From IMG/VR virus record IMGVR_UViG_3300037067_026422: a DNA stretch of 64,000 nucleotides. The stretch is one strand, 5' to 3'. Shown here piece by piece: positions 1,663-56,412 of the stretch. Positions within the stretch are counted from its first letter, which is position 1; each line of letters opens with the position of its first letter. The notes beneath the pieces were generated by a model. That model saw only the letters and a program-made list of their open reading frames with translations. It had not been told where the DNA came from and did no database searches. Source of the DNA: a virus. Lineage: Duplodnaviria; Caudoviricetes. A program made the position numbers and the translations under genes.

Positions 1663-2591
1663 CTTAGTATATTTTTTATTCTGTTAATGTAGGTATGCTC
1701 TTCTTTAACCAATTTCATTAATTCTATAGTTTTATTAACTGACATCCCTGTTTTAGCTTTCTCATATAAGCTATAACCATTGTCAGCATATATAAGCTCA
1801 TTATTAAATATTCTGTTTACTGCACTTGAATTAGTTATTCCAGATTGTCCATAGCTTATATTCTTGAATATTCTACAGGGTATATATCCCATTTCTATTT
1901 GAGGATCACTACAAAATTGCGGGGCATATTTAGACTCTTTTATAAGTTCAATGTGTCGCTCATCTGATATAAAATTAGCGTGTCTTTTTAAAAAACCTAT
2001 GCTGGTATTGGGGGTATATCCCCCATAAGCATGCATCTCTATTCCATCCTTTTGACAACCCTCTGAGAATCCAACGATATGCCTTCTAATATCATTCCAA
2101 CCAGAATCCAACACTGAACCAACATAGTTAACTATGTTCTTTCGACTTAGGGTAGCCCATTCTAAACAAATTTCCTCAGGAAGAAGATCTGTTGCCCAGG
2201 GCTGATATATTTCTCTACCTCTAATAAAAGTATAATCGTTTATTCTTTCTAAATTAGGCAGCGCGTATACCGGATTGGTAAGGACTTGCATATATACAGC
2301 CTGATCTGTTACAGGCTTAAATTGCTCATGAGAGCAATTATGAAGGATATACAGGCTATCTTTTCTTATAGGGATTCCAGTACATTCATCTGTACCTGAT
2401 GTTAAAAATAAGGTGTTAGAAAAGTCAAAGTTAGATATATCGGTTTTATTATTTAACCAATAAGACTCATAACCCATATATTTAAACGTTTTATAGAAAG
2501 CCCCGTGTATATAAGAGTGGGTATGAGTATCCTTCGGGTACCCCCACACTACTACTTTTTTTATTCCTACTAATCTGCTGCTCGTAGACAT
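1653..2591 (-). CDS. Putative glycosyltransferase (GT-B/CgeB-like C-terminus)
   Basis: GYIPCRIFKNISYG and HTYINRI C-terminal motifs typical of this GT group; island context. Confidence 0.6.
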   Translation of the reverse strand: MSTSSRLVGIKKVVVWGYPKDTHTHSYIHGAFYKTFKYMGYESYWLNNKTDISNFDFSNTLFLTSGTDECTGIPIRKDSLYILHNCSHEQFKPVTDQAVYMQVLTNPVYALPNLERINDYTFIRGREIYQPWATDLLPEEICLEWATLSRKNIVNYVGSVLDSGWNDIRRHIVGFSEGCQKDGIEMHAYGGYTPNTSIGFLKRHANFISDERHIELIKESKYAPQFCSDPQIEMGYIPCRIFKNISYGQSGITNSSAVNRIFNNELIYADNGYSLYEKAKTGMSVNKTIELMKLVKEEHTYINRIKNILRCF

Positions 2592-2602
2592 AATGTAAAA
2601 TC

Positions 2603-3256
2603 CTATGATTCTATTCTGGCATAGATATCACCAAAATTTATATTTTTTATATTGGTTACAAGATAAGAATTGATATCGTCTTTTTTTAACCACTGATTAT
2701 TACTAAATAGCAAAGATTCCCCTTCACTATAATTAAAGGTATACTTACCTAATGAATCTATCTTATTAAGACACTTGAGGGCATTAGTGTGTAACTCAGG
2801 AGTATATTCATAAGATATACATGGGATAGGCTGTGACAGCCCAGATAGTACCTCTATTTCACTACCCTCTACATCTATTTTACAATAATCGGGTACTCCA
2901 TACTTTTCTATAAGACTATCTAATGTAACTGTCTCAATATCAGTGGGGTTCCCCCATATGTACCCTCTAAATCTATCCTTACCCGTCTCATTAATGAATT
3001 CTTCAGAAAAAGTACTAATGGTATTAGCATTAGCTATCCTGAATTTTCTAGTCTGACCATCAGAAGATACCGCATAAGGAACTATTACTACCCTATCAGT
3101 TTTAAATCTTCTATGTAACTCAATAAGGCAATCTATTTGAGGTTCAACACAAACAACCCTTACACCATATGTAAGGTAACTCATTGTTTTATTTCCTATA
3201 TTGGCCCCAATATCAAATACTAAATGTTTATCTTTAATTATTTCGTTTAACAGCAT
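2603..3256 (-). CDS. FkbM family methyltransferase
   Basis: VFDIGANIG, VEPQ, TLDSL, KIDVEGSE motifs. Confidence 0.9.
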   Translation of the reverse strand: MLLNEIIKDKHLVFDIGANIGNKTMSYLTYGVRVVCVEPQIDCLIELHRRFKTDRVVIVPYAVSSDGQTRKFRIANANTISTFSEEFINETGKDRFRGYIWGNPTDIETVTLDSLIEKYGVPDYCKIDVEGSEIEVLSGLSQPIPCISYEYTPELHTNALKCLNKIDSLGKYTFNYSEGESLLFSNNQWLKKDDINSYLVTNIKNINFGDIYARIES

Positions 3257-3267
3257 CCTTAAAACTC

Positions 3268-3975
3268 CTATATTTGATACAGTGTGTGATCTTTTACAAG
3301 TGCTCTTAATTTTATGTACTTTTTATATGGATTATTTTCTGCCCAGGTTACTCCCTTGGGGAAGCAATAGGATGGATCAAGTATAACTTTGGGGGGGTTA
3401 TCTATAAGATATCGATTAAGATGACTCTCATCATGCCATTTTGCTATATATCCAATATCCATATCATCTTGTATCCCTTTGTATATCGTCTCCGACATCC
3501 TCAAAAAGTTATTTGCACTTCCCCCATTAAAACCCCCTGCAAAGTACACTGTACCTTCATCTGGTTTAATGTATGCCTTAGATAGAGGATTTTTATCATA
3601 TGAAAATACGTGCCGGGGGGCATTCCAAAATCCAGGATGCCTTGTCCCTACTAAATCCCCAATAACTTCATTTCCTACATAATCCTCGAAAAGCATGTCT
3701 ATATCACAATAGTACAGATAATCCATACCAGAAAATATCTGACTATTTTTACAAAATATCTCATATCTTCTGAGAGTCATACCAGGCCAGGGGTAATGCT
3801 CCTGGTTAACTATTGTAACGTCATTTCTCTTCACTATATCTGGTAAATTCGTGAAAAGAAAAAATCTTATTTCATGCCCCTCTTTAGACAAAAAGTACTT
3901 TTTAGCTGAATCATACAAAGGATCTACGAATTCAAGGTATTTATTTGTAGCTATATTTATTAACCCTATTTTCAT
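3268..3975 (-). CDS. Family 6 glycosyltransferase (ABO blood-group transferase-like)
   Basis: IATNKY, WP..TL.RY, CDID, HPGF, AGGFNGG, WHDESHLNRY motifs. Confidence 0.9.
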   Translation of the reverse strand: MKIGLINIATNKYLEFVDPLYDSAKKYFLSKEGHEIRFFLFTNLPDIVKRNDVTIVNQEHYPWPGMTLRRYEIFCKNSQIFSGMDYLYYCDIDMLFEDYVGNEVIGDLVGTRHPGFWNAPRHVFSYDKNPLSKAYIKPDEGTVYFAGGFNGGSANNFLRMSETIYKGIQDDMDIGYIAKWHDESHLNRYLIDNPPKVILDPSYCFPKGVTWAENNPYKKYIKLRALVKDHTLYQI

Positions 3976-46765: not shown

Positions 46766-49700
46766 TTATATTCGGTACATGATGCAGAGTATTAAAAATG
46801 CGTCTATTGATATATTGTCTGTTGATTTGTAAAAAATCTCTCCATCCCTACTCAGTATGCATAACTTTTGCTTGGGCCCTATAAACAGGTTGTCACCCCC
46901 AGTTCTAATTATCTCTAAAATATGTCGTAATTGACGAGCTGATACCGGATCAATGTCCATAGGATAATTGAAATAGCCTTCAGCATCAATTCTATCCATT
47001 ATCTTTGCATCCTTAAACAGCGTATCAGCTATATTACTTGCTGTTTTATTCAGTACTGCATGAGCATCACTTTTAATATCCACCCCATCGACAAGCATAC
47101 TCTTAACAGTAATATCTTTATAATAGTTATCCGCACTACTTAAGGTAGTACTGACAGGTTCTACTATCGCAGGATCAGAAGTTGCAGGATCAGAAGATGT
47201 TTCAACGACTGGTTCAGTTTTATGAGCTACTTCAAAATTACCAGTACCTTCTTTTTTTATCTTTTCCTTATATTCTTCCCAATAGTTATGGTCAACATCA
47301 AAAGTATCACCATACTCAGCATCCACATCAAAAGGAACTTCCCACTTGAGCTTGTCCGTAAGATCTCTCAGTTTCATAATCCGACATAGCTCCGGTATTA
47401 CAAAATCAAGCTTATCTTCTTTTACCTCAAAAAGAATTTCATCATGTATCGGGAGAAGAATCTTGATATCCTCCTGAAGATTGTTTTCACAGATCCATTT
47501 ATAAACTCTCCATAAAGCAATCTTTATTACATCAGCCCCCGTATTTTTACTGATGATACCTGCTGAATCAAACCTGTGTAGATCAGAATGAACGGATAAT
47601 GTAAAGGTATCTTCAGTTTTATCTATAATAGTTTTCTTTTTTAATTTATAGTGATAGTATATCTCGGATGGAAGCTCACACCCATATTTCTTCATCATCA
47701 AGAGCATACCCGGCAAGGTTACTTTTTTACCCGTATTAAGCTTACAAAAGTATGCACAATCATTAACATTCTTTCTGTCATATACTGAATAGAGTTTATT
47801 TTGAAATTCCTTTCTCAAAAATTCCGGTAGGATCATCTTGTTAATAGTACTTCTTCTTTTCCACTCTGTAGAAGGTAATCCCAACACCTCCTCTACTTTT
47901 TTAAGATCTTGCCATTCAAGTTTATAGGTATCTTCAGAAACCTTCCTTACAATAGAAGGCAGCCCAATTGACCAGCCTATAAGTTGTGTATCTCTTAACA
48001 ATGCTACAGAAACACCTCCACTCGCGTAGGGAAAACTTATACTTATGTGATGATCGAGAATGAGCTCGGAAACACCCCCACTCGCGTAGGGAAAACTATT
48101 ACAATCATCTGTATCAAAGTATCCCTTTATAAAAGCTGTCCTCATACTAATAGGAGATCTAAAAATCATTTCCGGTATACGCTTAGGTCTTGAGTCAGCA
48201 GGTTGATAACCTAATTCTATAAATAGATCAACCAAACCTTTTGAATTTATCTCCGGAAGATATTTTTTTAATCTTTCATCTTCCAGATTTAATTTCAGGG
48301 ACAATCTGGGGTTAGTTCTTATATCATCTCCTACTACATACCCCATCAAATAGGCTATAAAATCCCATTGCTCTTTAGAGTCTATGACAAAACTTTTTCC
48401 ATTATGAACTGATGCCTTATATTCATATCTTGGTGGATAGCTTCCAAATTCTTTAGCCAAAGGAATAGACACGCATATATCGGTATTTTCATCAAGGTCC
48501 TTAAAATGCCGAAATTCATACCCTTTTTCACCTACAACCAAAACTTCGTGTCGTGTATCACACCTTAAAAGCATACCATTAGATAGTTCTATTGTTGCTA
48601 ATTGACACTTCCCCCTATTAAGAACATCAAAGCTAGCCCATGTGGTACCCGTCCATATTTTTAGATGCTCTCCTTTATCCTTAAACTCCTTAATAGTTCC
48701 TATTGATATATAACCATACTTATCCGTTAAGCACCGCTCTTCCTTAACAAGGCAACCCTGTACGGCTGAATTTATTGCGCATCTATCTCCCTTCGCCTGT
48801 ATCCCTTTATCAGGAGAATTGTAGAATTCCCCAAGAGAACGTCGTCGACCAAACGCAGTCTTACTATACCCACGCTTCTTGGCAGCTTTCCATTCACGCT
48901 GGATCCAGCTACTCAAACCCTTATATTCCTTAAAGAAATTAATAATCATCTTTTTGGCTGTCTCATAGGGTATCTTTGCTTGTGCAGCAAATCCTCCTGC
49001 TCCTCCCCCATATAAAGTTAGGAAATTCAAGGTCTTACCGATCCCGCGTTCTCTCTTGGTAATCTCACTTTTACCCGTGATAATCTTACCTGTGATAGTA
49101 TGCAGATCGCCTGTACCGTGAAGAAACTCATGCAACCATTTAGGCTCTTTAGAAACATTGGCAGCTACCCTCAATTCTTCTCCACTATAGTCTATGGACA
49201 ACATCTTATATCCAGGGTGCGCTATCATTGCTTTACGGAGGTTAATAGAGTGCGGGTCTTCTTTATTATAGGTAGGGACATTCTGACAGTTGACACCACA
49301 GTAACCATCTATTTTCACACCATAACCACCCGAACCGCTAAAACGACCCGTATCCGCCTGAACCTGATTTAGTTTGAATTTAACCTCATCATTTTCATCA
49401 GCATTGATTAACCAGTTGTGCAAATAGGTGCTTTGAACTTTGACATAACCACGATAGGTCAAAACCATATTCATTAGGGGATTTTTAGTCTCCACCATCT
49501 CAAGCACTTCACCATTAGTCTGATACCCCCCAGCTTTTGTCCTTTCAGCTTTTTTAGGATATGGTAATTTAAGCTCATCAAATAAGATCACCCCAAGCTG
49601 CTGTGCAGAGTTTATATCAAATTCATGCCCTACGATGGTATATATCTCTTTTAACAGCTTCTGCATCCTACGCTCTACTTCAATATTCACTTCCTCAAGA

Positions 49701-50497
49701 TATCTCTTATCAATCCTTACATAGTTTCTTTCCATTTCCATCGTAACGAACAAGCAACGCTTTTCAATCTTATATATCGCCCATGGACCATCCCTGCCCG
49801 TCGGATCCTGTTGGTCTATTTTTTCCTTTAAATAAAAGTATAGTGCCAGCGTATTCATCCCATCACCACCACCATAATAAACAGCCTTCTGCGGTGGGAT
49901 CATTTCAAAAGCCACGACAGACTTTTTACGCCCTTTCACACCCATATCATCAATTTCAAGCTGAGGTCGATTGAGGAGAGCCCCTGACAGATATTTTAAA
50001 CCTTTCTCTCTCCTGGAAGCATCTTCTACTGCTGCCATGAGAAAAGTATCCTCATACATTTCTTCACGATCTATGAAGATGCCATGATTCCTTAAAATCT
50101 GACCATCATATTTGAAGTTGTGAAAAACTAATACACAGCTAGCCACAAGCCTGGCAGTTTCCCGAAGCATAAAACTTAATGAAACATTGTATTCCTGAGC
50201 ATCCTCATGAGAGATAGGGATATATACCCCTTCATCTGGATCATGAGCCATGCATATCCCCACGATCCGTATAACAGGCTTACCCTCGGAATCAAGTCTC
50301 GTATTGAGACCTGTAGTCTCAAAATCGTATGAGCATATCCCCTTTTTTATACAGAGATCAATAAAAGCTTCAATATCTGTCTGCTTTTTAAGCAGTATGA
50401 ACTTCTTTGTTTTCATCCATGGACGAAGCTCTATAAGCTCTTTGACACTACTTTCTGTAAAATCATCTAAAAGTTTTGAGGCTATATCAATGGACAT
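46766..50497 (-). CDS. polA: Family A DNA polymerase (3'-5' exonuclease + polymerase) with intein
   Basis: DFETTGL, HNFKYD, TGRFS, QNVP, IDYSGEELR, K.LNF..LYG, NSAVQG|TGAD, IHDE. Confidence 0.95.
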   Translation of the reverse strand: MSIDIASKLLDDFTESSVKELIELRPWMKTKKFILLKKQTDIEAFIDLCIKKGICSYDFETTGLNTRLDSEGKPVIRIVGICMAHDPDEGVYIPISHEDAQEYNVSLSFMLRETARLVASCVLVFHNFKYDGQILRNHGIFIDREEMYEDTFLMAAVEDASRREKGLKYLSGALLNRPQLEIDDMGVKGRKKSVVAFEMIPPQKAVYYGGGDGMNTLALYFYLKEKIDQQDPTGRDGPWAIYKIEKRCLFVTMEMERNYVRIDKRYLEEVNIEVERRMQKLLKEIYTIVGHEFDINSAQQLGVILFDELKLPYPKKAERTKAGGYQTNGEVLEMVETKNPLMNMVLTYRGYVKVQSTYLHNWLINADENDEVKFKLNQVQADTGRFSGSGGYGVKIDGYCGVNCQNVPTYNKEDPHSINLRKAMIAHPGYKMLSIDYSGEELRVAANVSKEPKWLHEFLHGTGDLHTITGKIITGKSEITKRERGIGKTLNFLTLYGGGAGGFAAQAKIPYETAKKMIINFFKEYKGLSSWIQREWKAAKKRGYSKTAFGRRRSLGEFYNSPDKGIQAKGDRCAINSAVQGCLVKEERCLTDKYGYISIGTIKEFKDKGEHLKIWTGTTWASFDVLNRGKCQLATIELSNGMLLRCDTRHEVLVVGEKGYEFRHFKDLDENTDICVSIPLAKEFGSYPPRYEYKASVHNGKSFVIDSKEQWDFIAYLMGYVVGDDIRTNPRLSLKLNLEDERLKKYLPEINSKGLVDLFIELGYQPADSRPKRIPEMIFRSPISMRTAFIKGYFDTDDCNSFPYASGGVSELILDHHISISFPYASGGVSVALLRDTQLIGWSIGLPSIVRKVSEDTYKLEWQDLKKVEEVLGLPSTEWKRRSTINKMILPEFLRKEFQNKLYSVYDRKNVNDCAYFCKLNTGKKVTLPGMLLMMKKYGCELPSEIYYHYKLKKKTIIDKTEDTFTLSVHSDLHRFDSAGIISKNTGADVIKIALWRVYKWICENNLQEDIKILLPIHDEILFEVKEDKLDFVIPELCRIMKLRDLTDKLKWEVPFDVDAEYGDTFDVDHNYWEEYKEKIKKEGTGNFEVAHKTEPVVETSSDPATSDPAIVEPVSTTLSSADNYYKDITVKSMLVDGVDIKSDAHAVLNKTASNIADTLFKDAKIMDRIDAEGYFNYPMDIDPVSARQLRHILEIIRTGGDNLFIGPKQKLCILSRDGEIFYKSTDNISIDAFLILCIMYRI
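47543..48754 (-). mobile_element. Intein (404 aa) with degenerate LAGLIDADG endonuclease in DNA polymerase
   Basis: VQG|CLVKEE...TRHEV...GIISKN|TGAD; LAGLIDADG remnants GYVVGDD and GYFDTDD. Confidence 0.9.
48009..48096 (-). CRISPR. Type I-E-like mini-array (repeat-spacer-repeat) inside the intein coding sequence
   Basis: Two 28-nt repeats GTTTTCCCTACGCGAGTGG(G/A)GGTGTTTC (48069-48096, 48009-48036; 1 mismatch) separated by 32-nt spacer CGAGCTCATTCTCGATCATCACATAAGTATAA. Confidence 0.8.
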
Positions 50498-51050
50498 GGC
50501 TACCTCTTATTTTCTCGAAAACTCTAAGCATACCATCCTTGAGCTTTACATATTGTACTTTAAATTTGTCATCTGGTATAACATACTTTAGCATCATATA
50601 GGCATAAACGAACTTAGCATATACATTTAAATCAATATCATCCCTTGCTGCCAAGATAGCCATTCGTAATCTTTCAAGGGACATTTTTCGTTCATCTACT
50701 TTTGGTTCTACTCTTACCTGTAACTTCCGTACATGTTCTTCAGTAGCTTCAGGCAATTTAGAAAGATCCAAAGAATAATCCTTAACTATCCTGCTTATCG
50801 CCTCACCAAACCCGATACCCTCCTTCTTCCTCACATAGGAGATAGCATCCCACTTTTCCTTGCATACCCAACAATATGCTGTATCTGTAGCTTTATAGTA
50901 TCGAGAGCTCTTTTTCCTATCTGCACCATGAAAAGGACAAGAAAACTGCTCCTCTTCCTGAGAGTTGGTTATTCTACCATCCAGTCTAAGCATCTCCCCC
51001 AAGGAAACCTGCTCTTTTATTAGACCTTTTACACTCTCGATATCTTTCAT
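50487..51050 (-). CDS. CHC2 zinc-finger protein (primase Zn-binding domain)
   Basis: CPFH...CWVC..WD.I.Y...EG..F.EA; no TOPRIM domain. Confidence 0.8.
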   Translation of the reverse strand: MKDIESVKGLIKEQVSLGEMLRLDGRITNSQEEEQFSCPFHGADRKKSSRYYKATDTAYCWVCKEKWDAISYVRKKEGIGFGEAISRIVKDYSLDLSKLPEATEEHVRKLQVRVEPKVDERKMSLERLRMAILAARDDIDLNVYAKFVYAYMMLKYVIPDDKFKVQYVKLKDGMLRVFEKIRGSHVH

Positions 51051-53286: not shown

Positions 53287-56200
53287 CTATTTGAAAACAG
53301 AACTATATAGGGCATCAACCGTGCCCTCATCATCCTTAAACAGTATATTATCTTTAAAATCTATTGCACCCTCAGCTATATCACCTATGACATTACCTAT
53401 AAGATCCTTTTTAGAATCCAGTATCTGAAGCACATGTTCATCTATGGTTTTTTTATTTATCATATGAAGCAGTAATATGTGCTCACGAACGCTACCTATG
53501 CGCTGGGCCCGCCCTATAGACTGATAAAGGTCCCCATAAGACCATGGCGTGTCGTAATAGAGTATTACGCCAGCAGCTTGAAGATTGATCGCTGCTGATC
53601 CTGCCTGAGTAATAAAAATAACCTTGCAATCCTGATTCATGTCCTGAAATAATTTCTTGGAGTTATTACGGGCTATCGAATCATCATCTCCCGTGATCCT
53701 GACATGCTTTATCTCAAGCTCATCAAGAGTGTGTGCAAGTCGTTTGATACCCGATTTGAATCTGGTAAACACTATCGTTTTCTCCTCCGATAGCTCTTGC
53801 TCAAAAAGTCTCCGAAACTCTGTTTCTTTTGAACTCTCTCCCTCTTCCCCCAACCACCCTGGACCATTAGAAACAAGCTGACAATAGGATAATGCAGCAA
53901 TTTTATTTTTTAGAAGTCCGTCTTTTGTAAGGGATTCTTCATATCTAAGCTTAAGTAGCTCAAAAGTTTTACTCTCTTTTTCAGTCAACTCAGCCCTGCC
54001 ACTACAATACTCTTCAAACTTAAAGTACTTTTCTTTGATCAGTTTACGATAAAGCTCACCACTCAAAGCTTTCCTATATAATTGCTCCTGATCTTCAGAC
54101 ATTTCAAGTATAAGCTTTCTGGAGATAAGCTGTGGCAGTTCTGATGCAACATCACGAGTTTTACGCATCAAGAAGAAAGGGTCTATAAGATCCTTAAATT
54201 GTGCAAGATTCTTATATCCTACAGTTTTATTGAAATAACGCTTTCTTCCCTTTTGCCACAGAGTCATCTTCTTTCTTATAACGTATTCCCTATTAAATCC
54301 TATCTTTCCCGGGAATAATCCTGGCACTATTACTTTATATATATTATAAGGTTCCTCAAGCCGGTTCTTTATAATCGTAGCAGACATCCCATAAACGAAG
54401 GTGGCTTTTGAGGATATTTCATTAGCTCCGAACCATGTCTTAGTTGTACTGTTTTTGATCTCCTGTACTTCATCAAAGGCAACCTGAAACAACGTACCAC
54501 GATTTTCAGCCAAAAATATATAATCATCCTGCACGACATGATAGTTACAGATAAGAACATGGGCTTTTATATGATTATACTGCGCTTTCCGTGCTTCAAT
54601 CCCACGAAGAGTCTTATACTTCTTTCCAGACACTTTAAGCTCTTCGATAGAGCCATACTGATCTACGCCTTTTACCTTACCATATTGGTTGGTGAGGACG
54701 TGAACAGTAACTCCCTCACAGAATCTCTCAAACTCCTCTTTCCACTGCTCCATAGCCGATTTTGCAGTCACTACAAGAAGTTTCAGATTTGGAGTAGACA
54801 TAAGACGATAAGCATATGCAGTTATCATCTGAAGCGTATTATGATTAACGAAACCATTACCTATAAAATGATTCTCCACCGGGACATTAAAATCAGCAAA
54901 AACAGCTTTTACTGGTTCTATAGATACTATTTTATCAAAATAAAAGTTTTGATCTTGAATAAACTTTAATGTTGAATAATTCGAGACTATTTCTTTTAGA
55001 TTATATCTATCTATCTCTTGTATAAAAGAATCCAGCAATTCATAAGTCAGTCCTTTTTTCTTATAGATGACTTCTTCTAGCATTCTTTTTAAATGGTATC
55101 CAACCATACCTTTCCAACCAGACCCTTTAACTGAAAAACCTTTATGTTCTGGAAGAGTCTTTAAATGGGAGATTATATCATTTATTGCCTGTTTTACTAA
55201 AGGTTTCCCTATAGATATTATATCCAGATTAGAGTTTCTTTTTTTATTTATTACTTGGCTAAGAAATTCATTTTTCCTATTCGATATAAACCCTATAGTC
55301 TTCTGAAATTCCACAGCATCCCTACCGCAAAAATAAAGAAGAAAGTAAGGTCTCCGTTCATTTCCTACGCTTACCATTTTTTTCTTTAATCTTGATGTAA
55401 CCCCAAAGTTTAATAACAATAGTTGTGTTTGCTTTAGAAGTATCTGAGATTTTGAAGAGCAGCTAATTATGCCATTTGAAACCTCTACACTACCATTCCC
55501 CTCATAATATGCTCTTAAAAAAGCCCTAATAACAGATCTTGGGGAAGACAATATAGAATCTGGTACTTTTTGATCCCCAGACCTTGCCTCAAGGTTAATA
55601 CCTAATAACTCAAAGATCTTTACTATCTCCAAGCTATTTATAGTTATTTCTTCGTTGTAATTTAAAGTATTTTCGGATTGAACATAACCAAAAATACTTG
55701 ATAATAATTCCCGTATCTTTTTATGAATAGGAGGATCGAACTGAGTAATGACTATAGTATACTCACGTGAGCCGTGCCCCTCAGAGACATAGAAGCCTAG
55801 TAATTCCGCCAGATTCTCATCAAGATATGATGGGATCTTATACCCTTTAGAACGAGTACTGTTTTTTTCATACGTGATATTAACGTACTTGTCCGAGAAC
55901 AAACCACCTCTATAAATACAGGCGTAATCCCCTACACTCAAAGTATCAAGTCGCTTATATTCAAAAGAGTCAACAGTGGGAACATAAAGGGGATGATGCC
56001 CCAATCCTATTAGTTCATAACCTTTTTGAGTGGTTATTTTTAAGCCATCTTTTTCACCACAATAGTATATAGCCCCAGGTCTCTGAGGACCATTCATAGT
56101 TAAGATATCTAAAGCATGCAAAAAAGAATATAACTGATCTTCCTTAACATCAAGGGGTAACAAATCCTTAAGTTTTTTTAATCCATTAGTGGTCGGGATA

Positions 56201-56412
56201 TAAGATTCTACATCGATGCACTTTCCCAAACCTACACCATCTCCAAGAATCATTCGAGAAAGAGAAAGAAGATGTACAACCCCAATGGTCTGATACCCAC
56301 GAAGTTGCGTAGAGGGGTTTAGATATTTGCAGGGCTTAAGACTTGCTTTTTTGGACTGACGGAGCTTTTTGAGAAAAGCATAATTAGACGGTTTGCTGCT
56401 AACGCCAGCCAT
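53287..56412 (-). CDS. SNF2-family helicase with intein
   Basis: LRGYQ, GDGVGLGK|T, FDEVQ, SAT, IVFTRF, AINLQ, QSIGRAQRIG. Confidence 0.93.
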   Translation of the reverse strand: MAGVSSKPSNYAFLKKLRQSKKASLKPCKYLNPSTQLRGYQTIGVVHLLSLSRMILGDGVGLGKCIDVESYIPTTNGLKKLKDLLPLDVKEDQLYSFLHALDILTMNGPQRPGAIYYCGEKDGLKITTQKGYELIGLGHHPLYVPTVDSFEYKRLDTLSVGDYACIYRGGLFSDKYVNITYEKNSTRSKGYKIPSYLDENLAELLGFYVSEGHGSREYTIVITQFDPPIHKKIRELLSSIFGYVQSENTLNYNEEITINSLEIVKIFELLGINLEARSGDQKVPDSILSSPRSVIRAFLRAYYEGNGSVEVSNGIISCSSKSQILLKQTQLLLLNFGVTSRLKKKMVSVGNERRPYFLLYFCGRDAVEFQKTIGFISNRKNEFLSQVINKKRNSNLDIISIGKPLVKQAINDIISHLKTLPEHKGFSVKGSGWKGMVGYHLKRMLEEVIYKKKGLTYELLDSFIQEIDRYNLKEIVSNYSTLKFIQDQNFYFDKIVSIEPVKAVFADFNVPVENHFIGNGFVNHNTLQMITAYAYRLMSTPNLKLLVVTAKSAMEQWKEEFERFCEGVTVHVLTNQYGKVKGVDQYGSIEELKVSGKKYKTLRGIEARKAQYNHIKAHVLICNYHVVQDDYIFLAENRGTLFQVAFDEVQEIKNSTTKTWFGANEISSKATFVYGMSATIIKNRLEEPYNIYKVIVPGLFPGKIGFNREYVIRKKMTLWQKGRKRYFNKTVGYKNLAQFKDLIDPFFLMRKTRDVASELPQLISRKLILEMSEDQEQLYRKALSGELYRKLIKEKYFKFEEYCSGRAELTEKESKTFELLKLRYEESLTKDGLLKNKIAALSYCQLVSNGPGWLGEEGESSKETEFRRLFEQELSEEKTIVFTRFKSGIKRLAHTLDELEIKHVRITGDDDSIARNNSKKLFQDMNQDCKVIFITQAGSAAINLQAAGVILYYDTPWSYGDLYQSIGRAQRIGSVREHILLLHMINKKTIDEHVLQILDSKKDLIGNVIGDIAEGAIDFKDNILFKDDEGTVDALYSSVFK
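54838..56220 (-). mobile_element. Intein (461 aa) with LAGLIDADG endonuclease in the SNF2 P-loop
   Basis: GLGK|CIDVES...HHPL...GFVNHN|TLQ; LLGFYVSEG and LRAYYEGNG motifs. Confidence 0.93.

Follow-up and report, generated by a model that had tools for sequence, protein, structure and literature searches.

Several kinds of clustered regularly interspaced short palindromic repeat (CRISPR) elements have been described from viruses. Mini-arrays are known in the archaeal viruses SPV1 and SPV2, in phages, and in prophages and act against related viruses; they are transcribed from units located between genes, and the majority of their spacers have matches in related viruses (PMC11656645). Racr elements are solitary repeat units expressed as small noncoding RNAs from their own promoter, and those of type I-E have been validated experimentally (Camara-Wilpert et al. 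2023, PMC10651486). In Cracr elements, arrays with repeats of the I-E type that are carried by phages load the Cascade of the host, compete with its CRISPR RNAs (crRNAs), and may contain poorly processed degenerate repeats, and Cracr regulators silence the promoters of CRISPR-associated (cas) genes; the characterized I-E Cracr has spacer-like parts of 21 to 24 nt, one of which partly matches the host casA promoter (bioRxiv 10.1101/2024.10.29.618823). This is an active field, and the phage CRISPR repeats described in it, be they mini-arrays, Racr, or Cracr, are all intergenic. For huge phages, Al-Shayeb et al. in 2020 reportedly described orphan and complete CRISPR loci as ordinary intergenic arrays, and we know of none described inside an intein or other coding sequence. 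Here, we report a repeat-spacer-repeat unit of type I-E origin that lies in frame within the intein of a phage DNA polymerase gene (polA). The gene was found in a 64-kb stretch of the IMG/VR record IMGVR_UViG_3300037067_026422 (here called the window), part of a 238,919-bp contig of an uncultivated phage from a groundwater sample. As a cas-less CRISPR element carried by a phage, the unit appears to be unprecedented in its dual-coded location; a literature search found no paper combining CRISPR arrays with inteins in this sense.

Compared with the mini-arrays (PMC11656645), the intein unit likewise has one spacer between two repeats, uses a repeat of cellular arrays, is borne by a virus, and has no cas genes seen nearby; it differs in being embedded in the reading frame of an essential gene, in lacking a promoter of its own, and in that no target was found for its spacer in the polA regions of three relatives or in the public viral collections searched. 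Like a Racr, it is a phage copy of a host-type repeat that could bind Cas6 and Cas7 and divert them. However, its two repeats stand 60 nt apart around a full-length spacer and inside an mRNA, rather than as a solitary repeat, and this pairing therefore argues against a classic Racr. The spacer, at 32 nt, is of full length and therefore argues against the Cracr pattern; in addition, as a weak test, no match that could lie in a cas or toxin promoter was found for it in two metagenome-assembled genomes (MAGs G001 and G002). With the CRISPR loci of huge phages, the unit shares a genome of >200 kb, an origin in an environmental metagenome, and repeats without cas genes nearby. Elements of this kind could easily be overlooked. 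SRUFinder, with which Racrs were discovered, masks open reading frames (ORFs) called with confidence and counts matches within genes as likely false positives (PMC10651486); in-gene elements are therefore invisible to this main pipeline, and surveys may undercount them. An in-frame I-E unit in an essential gene indicates that such elements can occupy coding sequence.

The unit spans positions 48009 to 48096 on the minus strand, which is the sense strand of polA. An initial annotation made from the sequence alone had described two 28-nt repeats with one mismatch around a 32-nt spacer, and this structure was confirmed. The repeats are identical at 27/28 positions, their start-to-start distance is exactly 60 nt, and the spacer between them (48037 to 48068) is unique and begins with a pyrimidine. 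A scan of the 64-kb window allowing up to three mismatches recovered the two intein copies alone, and 100 shuffles of the window gave no matches (mean, 0.00). The upstream repeat (48069 to 48096) has a perfect stem and a GNRA-type tetraloop, with a predicted fold of a 7-bp stem and a 4-nt loop (−10.2 kcal/mol; z, −2.66). The downstream repeat (48009 to 48036) has a single G-to-A change at repeat position 20, which is synonymous in its codon and creates a C-A mismatch in the stem; its predicted fold reaches only −5.5 kcal/mol. Translated in the polA frame, the unit reads SFPYASGGVS, 10 further residues, and SFPYASGGVS again. It starts two codons past the second LAGLIDADG motif of the intein (48104 to 48133), so the in-frame peptide repeat that the annotation had placed after this motif also stands.

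To identify the repeat, a degenerate 23-nt core was designed to cover both intein copies together with a diverged copy at 35512 to 35539 of the window. The exact 24-nt repeat core had matched nothing in IMG/VR and nothing in the GTDB genomes. The degenerate core matched six genome loci and six metagenome loci; 10 of these 12 were arrays, with 4 to 115 repeats and a period of mostly 61 nt (59 to 63 nt). The degenerate core had no match in IMG/VR, where this repeat subfamily is absent from all other viral contigs. The metagenome contig Ga0123335_1125047 (L010) holds the 28-mer of the intein four times, 28/28 identical to the upstream copy and with a 61-nt period, in an array directly 3′ of genes for Cas1e (E value, 1e−97) and Cas2e (E value, 2e−28) identified with NCBIfam models. 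On a MAG contig (L003), a 27/28 version of the repeat occurs in ten perfect copies plus a degenerate end copy, and NCBIfam models identified genes for Cas6e, Cas7e, Cas5e, Cas1e, and Cas2e preceding the array. At a third locus (L001), the repeats are preceded by Cas1e and Cas2e genes according to the same models, and the Cas scores at all three loci were far over the curated NCBIfam cutoffs. The remaining arrays, all with variant repeats, came from MAGs of Verrucomicrobia, Planctomycetia, and Kiritimatiellae and from four more metagenome contigs. Native repeat variants include a compensatory change at stem pair 9-18.

Because identical or near-identical repeats form arrays adjoining type I-E cas genes, the intein repeat can be assigned to type I-E, which is what the initial annotation had proposed. 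As judged by these sequence comparisons, it is a genuine type I-E CRISPR repeat of bacterial origin. The upstream copy has the I-E architecture of 28 to 29 nt, a G+C-rich stem of 6 to 7 bp, a tetraloop, and a 3′ handle of 7 to 8 nt. Matching of the repeat to cellular arrays, a check proposed in the annotation, gave the identical 28-mer in L010 and the 27/28 version in L003. The Rfam CRISPR-DR models gave no family at E values up to 10 between 47500 and 48600; these short models are weak, and the result counts for little. Native arrays share the direction of their cas genes, and the matching repeat orientation is that of the window's minus strand. The polA mRNA therefore bears the repeats in crRNA sense, in agreement with the strand that had been predicted for a crRNA source.

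With the repeat set at 28 nt, the native spacers come to 33 nt. All 11 native spacers listed for L003 and L010 begin with a pyrimidine, and so does that of the intein unit. The annotation's remark that I-E units normally measure 61 nt also held. Spacings of 60 nt are rare in native arrays (1/18 and 1/22), as are those of 59, 62, and 63 nt. The 60-nt intein unit, a rare form that preserves the reading frame, is thus off the usual I-E length and atypical, yet inside the natural range. No leader-like sequence was found upstream of the unit, and its flanks are unlike the leaders of L001, L003, and L010. The L001 locus (1766 to 3269 of a Bacillota MAG contig) proved to be the same sequence as one of the metagenome contigs (L011), and in it cas1e-cas2e is followed by only two repeats. 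These lie 1,448 nt apart, compared with a spacer of 33 nt in native arrays, and the stretch between them contains small ORFs without an NCBIfam match. It may represent an array broken by an insertion or, alternatively, a kilobase-sized "spacer."

The polA gene (46766 to 50497, minus strand) encodes a family A DNA polymerase of 1,243 amino acids (Pfam DNA_pol_A; E value, 9e−82) with one intein. The window is syntenic, in the order SNF2, DnaB, primase, and PolA, with contigs of relatives that came from other metagenomes; one of these contigs has 210 kb. The polymerase motifs break off at "...SAVQG" and restart at "TGADVIK...". The 404 residues in between (residues 582 to 985; 47543 to 48754, minus strand) were taken as the intein because they start with Cys and end with Asn before Thr. 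A TxxH block was found at 48536 to 48562. An AlphaFold2 (AF2) model of the intein, built from 92 sequences, had a mean predicted local distance difference test (pLDDT) score of 89.9, with 97 to 98 in the Hint domain. The hallmarks of an intein are thus present, namely, the N-terminal Cys, TxxH, the C-terminal Asn with a +1 nucleophile, and the Hint fold. The best PDB matches in Foldseek were endonuclease-bearing inteins (7QSS, TliVMA; 1DQ3, PI-PfuI; 1VDE, PI-SceI; E values, 4e−12 to 7e−07), which likewise combine a Hint domain with an inserted LAGLIDADG endonuclease.

A word-indexed search with residues 700 to 900 recovered 11 polymerases that carry the same intein at the same site, with 45 to 52% identity in that region. 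Alignment with these close homologs showed conserved splicing blocks and a decayed LAGLIDADG endonuclease core (48104 to 48352, minus strand). Motif 1 (48323 to 48352) has lost one residue and ends in DD, compared with GDGG in 11/11 homologs. A deletion of 29 residues at ∼48236 to 48268 has removed a stretch, including a conserved strand, that all 11 retain, and motif 2 ends in DD instead of DG (DTDGC in 11/11 homologs). The Pfam family LAGLIDADG_3, listed for all 11 homologs, was undetected in the window polymerase. With both motifs altered, the 29-residue deletion, and a replaced hairpin (see below), the domain departs from an active endonuclease. Judged by the alignment and the structural model, the endonuclease around the unit is dead or dying, while the splicing domain looks intact. 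We infer that the intein still splices and that the residues specified by the foreign block would form a floppy loop discarded with it. The initial annotation had regarded the endonuclease region of the intein as a safe harbor, and this view fits the decayed endonuclease and intact splicing blocks. Inteins on their way to becoming mini-inteins in the homing cycle likewise show endonuclease decay with splicing residues kept; in the window, in contrast to known decaying inteins, the DNA-binding hairpin has been replaced by foreign CRISPR DNA, of which no earlier description was found. Decaying intein endonucleases appear to be entry sites for foreign DNA in an essential gene without harm to the protein.

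In the 11 close homologs, motif 2 is followed by 13 almost invariant residues (KKR-x-NRY-x-x-HT-x-N) and then by "-x-x-LLRD." An exhaustive HMMER search found 272 intein relatives. Homologous inteins, 91 in number and down to 24% identity, were compared; all 91 have a short beta-hairpin at this position that ends in a conserved His-containing strand. In the window polymerase, the 13-residue hairpin is replaced by a block of 31 codons (residues 800 to 830; 48008 to 48100, minus strand), composed of the unit and one extra codon. This block is the least confident part of the AF2 model (pLDDT of 46 to 58 in ten-residue bins, with intein residues 223 to 233 and 242 to 245 below 50). The DNA flanks align to the relatives up to a Cys codon and again from the Ile/Val-Ala codons. 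If the pyrimidine after each repeat is taken as its 29th base, 89 nt stand in place of ∼35 nt, which adds 54 nt net and keeps the frame. The junctions fall within 0 to 4 nt of the repeat ends, both repeats are of full length, and exactly one whole unit is present.

The block is absent from all 91 homologous inteins, which do not contain even one repeat copy. Among 5.8 billion protein clusters, no protein besides the window's own contains the encoded peptide. The intein DNA had no relative in GenBank phages, and the intein protein had none in IMG/VR. On this comparative evidence the block is a lineage-specific insertion or replacement, as had been suspected of the 88-nt stretch, and the concern that homologous inteins might carry the same peptide can be set aside. 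A 10-residue peptide repeated 20 residues apart could also arise by internal duplication of a protein segment, unrelated to CRISPR. However, the repeated DNA matches without a difference the CRISPR repeats that adjoin type I-E cas genes, the stretch separating the two copies occurs only once, and no homologous intein has even one copy, which leaves a duplication with a negligible probability.

An assembly chimera of phage reads and a host CRISPR array was also considered, and it had been feared in the initial annotation. The evidence used consisted of assembled contigs (Logan) of sequencing runs; no RNA run was listed for the stretch of the unit. In the source run (groundwater, 2022), a contig of 15,341 nt extends across 47507 to 50600 and spans the block with no difference from the window. 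The same phage was recovered at ∼2.5-fold depth from a landfill metagenome of a different study (2018; run X2), with all pieces identical to the window. One landfill contig of 158 nt covers 47949 to 48106 and so includes both repeats and the spacer together with 60 nt and 10 nt of the intein flanks, again without differences; this run has no contig over 48141 to 48664 and reaches only 10 nt past the upstream junction. In favor of a chimera, extra contig depth was seen over the block in three runs, the summed depth at 48010 to 48140 being ∼2-fold that of the flanks in the source and landfill runs, and in run X3 a 31-nt contig aligned to 48067 to 48097 with four differences. Related CRISPR repeats from other DNA, possibly that of the host, are probably present in those samples. 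A chimera would need to have formed in two habitats and studies, and it would also need to have swapped 13 conserved codons for 31 while keeping a frame of 1,243 codons open. It is considered very improbable. Overall, we hold with high confidence that the intein unit is real, in frame, and derived from CRISPR.

No target could be assigned to the spacer, for which the annotation had envisaged a search among viral, plasmid, and host sequences. No match was found within the window, among 301 native spacers and their loci, in the polA neighborhoods of three relatives, or in IMG/VR with every sixth base free. GenBank phages yielded nothing credible (E value, 3), and plasmids likewise gave no credible match (E value, 3 or worse). 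The MAGs G001 and G002, which contain near-identical repeats, had no site with three or fewer mismatches over the first 22 nt. A T4-like capsid scaffolding gene (L028) was considered and rejected. It shares an exact 20-mer with the spacer (20/32), the other 12 nt being unmatched, and ∼0.2 such matches are expected by chance; the peptide specified by the spacer was encoded by 0/120 homologs and by no IMG/VR contig, and the match was treated as chance. In the reverse direction, when the 301 native spacers were tested for a host link, their matches in the window were no longer than 11 to 19 nt.

The window contains further CRISPR-like repeats outside polA. A solitary I-E-like repeat (35512 to 35539, minus strand) is 22/28 identical to the intein repeat and is closer to the repeats of the Planctomycetia and Kiritimatiellae arrays (subfamily GCTTTC...GGATGT). 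It is followed on the same strand by a 32-nt segment (35480 to 35511), which had no target match, and by a strong intrinsic terminator with an 18-bp hairpin (35440 to 35479). In its layout, the stretch from 35440 to 35539 corresponds to a crRNA with the terminator as its 3′ hairpin, and this repeat fits the Racr family better than the intein unit does. Upstream of it in the same intergenic cassette (35.4 to 35.9 kb), ARAGORN identified a tRNA-Asn (GTT; 35708 to 35782, minus strand), around which lie two putative type I-C-like repeats (35807 to 35840 and ∼35635 to 35662, minus strand). Both end in ATTGRAAC, and their assignment to type I-C is by resemblance; no type I-C-like repeat was present in G001 or G002. 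From its sequence, the phage thus seems to hold several CRISPR-repeat RNAs. With these additional cassettes, the intein unit is a priori more likely to be something other than debris, and the other I-E-like cassette favors a role in hijacking or decoying host Cascade.

The reading we favor is that a crRNA-like RNA freed from the polA mRNA occupies type I-E proteins of the host. Neither a sigma-70-like promoter on the sense strand (47700 to 48800) nor a terminator after the unit was found, and the unit would therefore be transcribed only within the polA mRNA, in crRNA sense. In a host with a matching Cas6e and Cascade, Cas6e would bind to the hairpin of the upstream repeat and also, though less well, to the mismatched hairpin of the downstream repeat. 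Cutting at the 3′ base of the stem would release a crRNA-like RNA of ∼60 nt, with an 8-nt handle, a guide of 31 to 32 nt, and a 21-nt hairpin, and this RNA would then occupy host Cascade. It might work against a competitor, as a phage mini-array without cas genes, or it might be a repeat decoy that titrates Cas proteins in the manner of a Racr; the decoy would need just one good hairpin, and the upstream hairpin is perfect. The cost would be the loss of the polA transcripts that are cut. In support of a released RNA are the full-length repeats, the perfect upstream copy, the near-native spacer length, the sense orientation, a first spacer base that is a pyrimidine as in native units, junctions within 0 to 4 nt of the repeat ends, and the further repeat cassettes in the window. 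Mini-arrays, Racr decoys, and Cracr arrays are, moreover, strategies already established for phages.

Several observations weigh against it. The C-A mismatch of the downstream repeat lies two pairs from the cleavage site, and all seven recovered variants of the native repeat have G at position 20. No protospacer was found in any collection searched, and the lack of a promoter and terminator described above tells in the same direction. No Cas family was present among the top 25 PADLOC/Pfam families of 70 window ORFs, which represent 64 kb of the ∼239-kb contig. No relative shares the unit, which thus offers no evidence of conservation, and the groundwater and landfill samples are identical across polA and carry no information on constraint. 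In addition, Cas6e cleavage would destroy an essential mRNA, and the unit may be one more tolerated lesion of a domain that also shows a deletion of 29 residues and further damage. Weighing these points, we place the release of such an RNA just short of an even chance, and any RNA-level role with host type I-E proteins somewhere between slightly under even and even. If the RNA is processed, one stretch of DNA would encode both a discarded peptide and a guide RNA and would form a direct molecular link from a phage replication gene to the CRISPR machinery of the host. A fuller version, in which the intein hides a working phage crRNA or decoy gene whose dual-coded loop is spliced off while Cas6e cuts the mRNA into a guide that commandeers or jams Cascade, and which was possibly built in place by host Cas1-Cas2, is unlikely on present evidence. 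Were this hiding place real, polymerase expression would be tied to the state of the host CRISPR system.

Alternatively, the unit could be a neutral relic, in which a fragment of a type I-E array, or of a mini-array from another mobile element, was captured by repair or recombination in a pseudogenized domain and its frame was kept by luck, with no RNA function. The decayed state of the domain with its other indels, the stem mismatch, the lack of a promoter and of a spacer target, and the confinement of the unit to one lineage are all as expected of a relic. Survival in frame would also have been undemanding, the unit being open in two of its three sense frames. However, random capture leaves unexplained why the junctions lie so close to the repeat ends and why exactly one whole unit was taken up. 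The upstream repeat, moreover, is still 28/28 identical to that of a native array, the phage has further CRISPR-repeat cassettes with a terminator of their own, and selection should act against a site for Cas6e in the mRNA of an essential gene if the host has a matching system. A relic is therefore regarded as a realistic possibility, albeit a somewhat doubtful one. Even so, it would record that a phage genome and a type I-E array have undergone physical exchange, and the precision of the junctions at the repeat ends would still need a mechanism.

One mechanism that could provide such precision is adaptation in place, in two steps. A single 29-nt repeat would first have replaced ∼35 nt in frame (net, −6 nt), after which Cas1e-Cas2e of the host would have integrated a spacer and duplicated the repeat (+60 nt); selection would have kept only the rare 60-nt product that left polA in frame. 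Off-target integration by I-E Cas1-Cas2 at repeat-like sites was reportedly observed by Nivala et al. in 2018. This scenario fits a functional or a neutral present state. It accounts for the repeat boundaries being exact and the tandem register perfect, for the unusual unit length, native 60-nt units being rare but existing, and for the pyrimidine at the first spacer base, as in native acquisitions. Conversely, the contigs, which drop rare variants, contained no single-repeat or other-spacer variant, there is no leader-like flank upstream, and the scenario leaves unexplained how an exact solitary repeat was imported in the first place. The scenario is rather improbable; if it is correct, CRISPR adaptation would here have left its first trace in a viral coding sequence. 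Two other origins were rejected. In a recombination through a phage-matching spacer, the replaced segment would have been retained beside the unit, which it is not, and the flanks show no recognizable protospacer-adjacent motif at the distance required. A mature crRNA that had been reverse transcribed would have left ends inside the repeats and not at the repeat ends.

Other features of the window and its relatives were also recorded. Almost all window ORFs (69/71) are on the minus strand. The SNF2-family helicase of the replication module (53287 to 56412, minus strand; 1,041 amino acids) contains an intein of its own, in which LAGLIDADG_3 scored 67.7 bits, over the Pfam threshold. Its orthologs in two relatives (L013 and L017) have 594 and 590 amino acids and are without an intein. 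The relatives L013 (4158 to 5363) and L015 (13163 to 14368) carry a gene of the TnpB/IS605 OrfB type (401 amino acids) with a Cas12f1-like TNB domain; it sits at differing places near the replication module and has no equivalent among the window's top Pfam families. Within the window, six ORFs match glycosyltransferase family 2, and a Thg1-like tRNA-His guanylyltransferase, an RNA ligase, a ThiF/E1-like protein, an NAD-dependent DNA ligase, and a sigma-70-type factor are also encoded. Such a large auxiliary repertoire is typical of huge phages.

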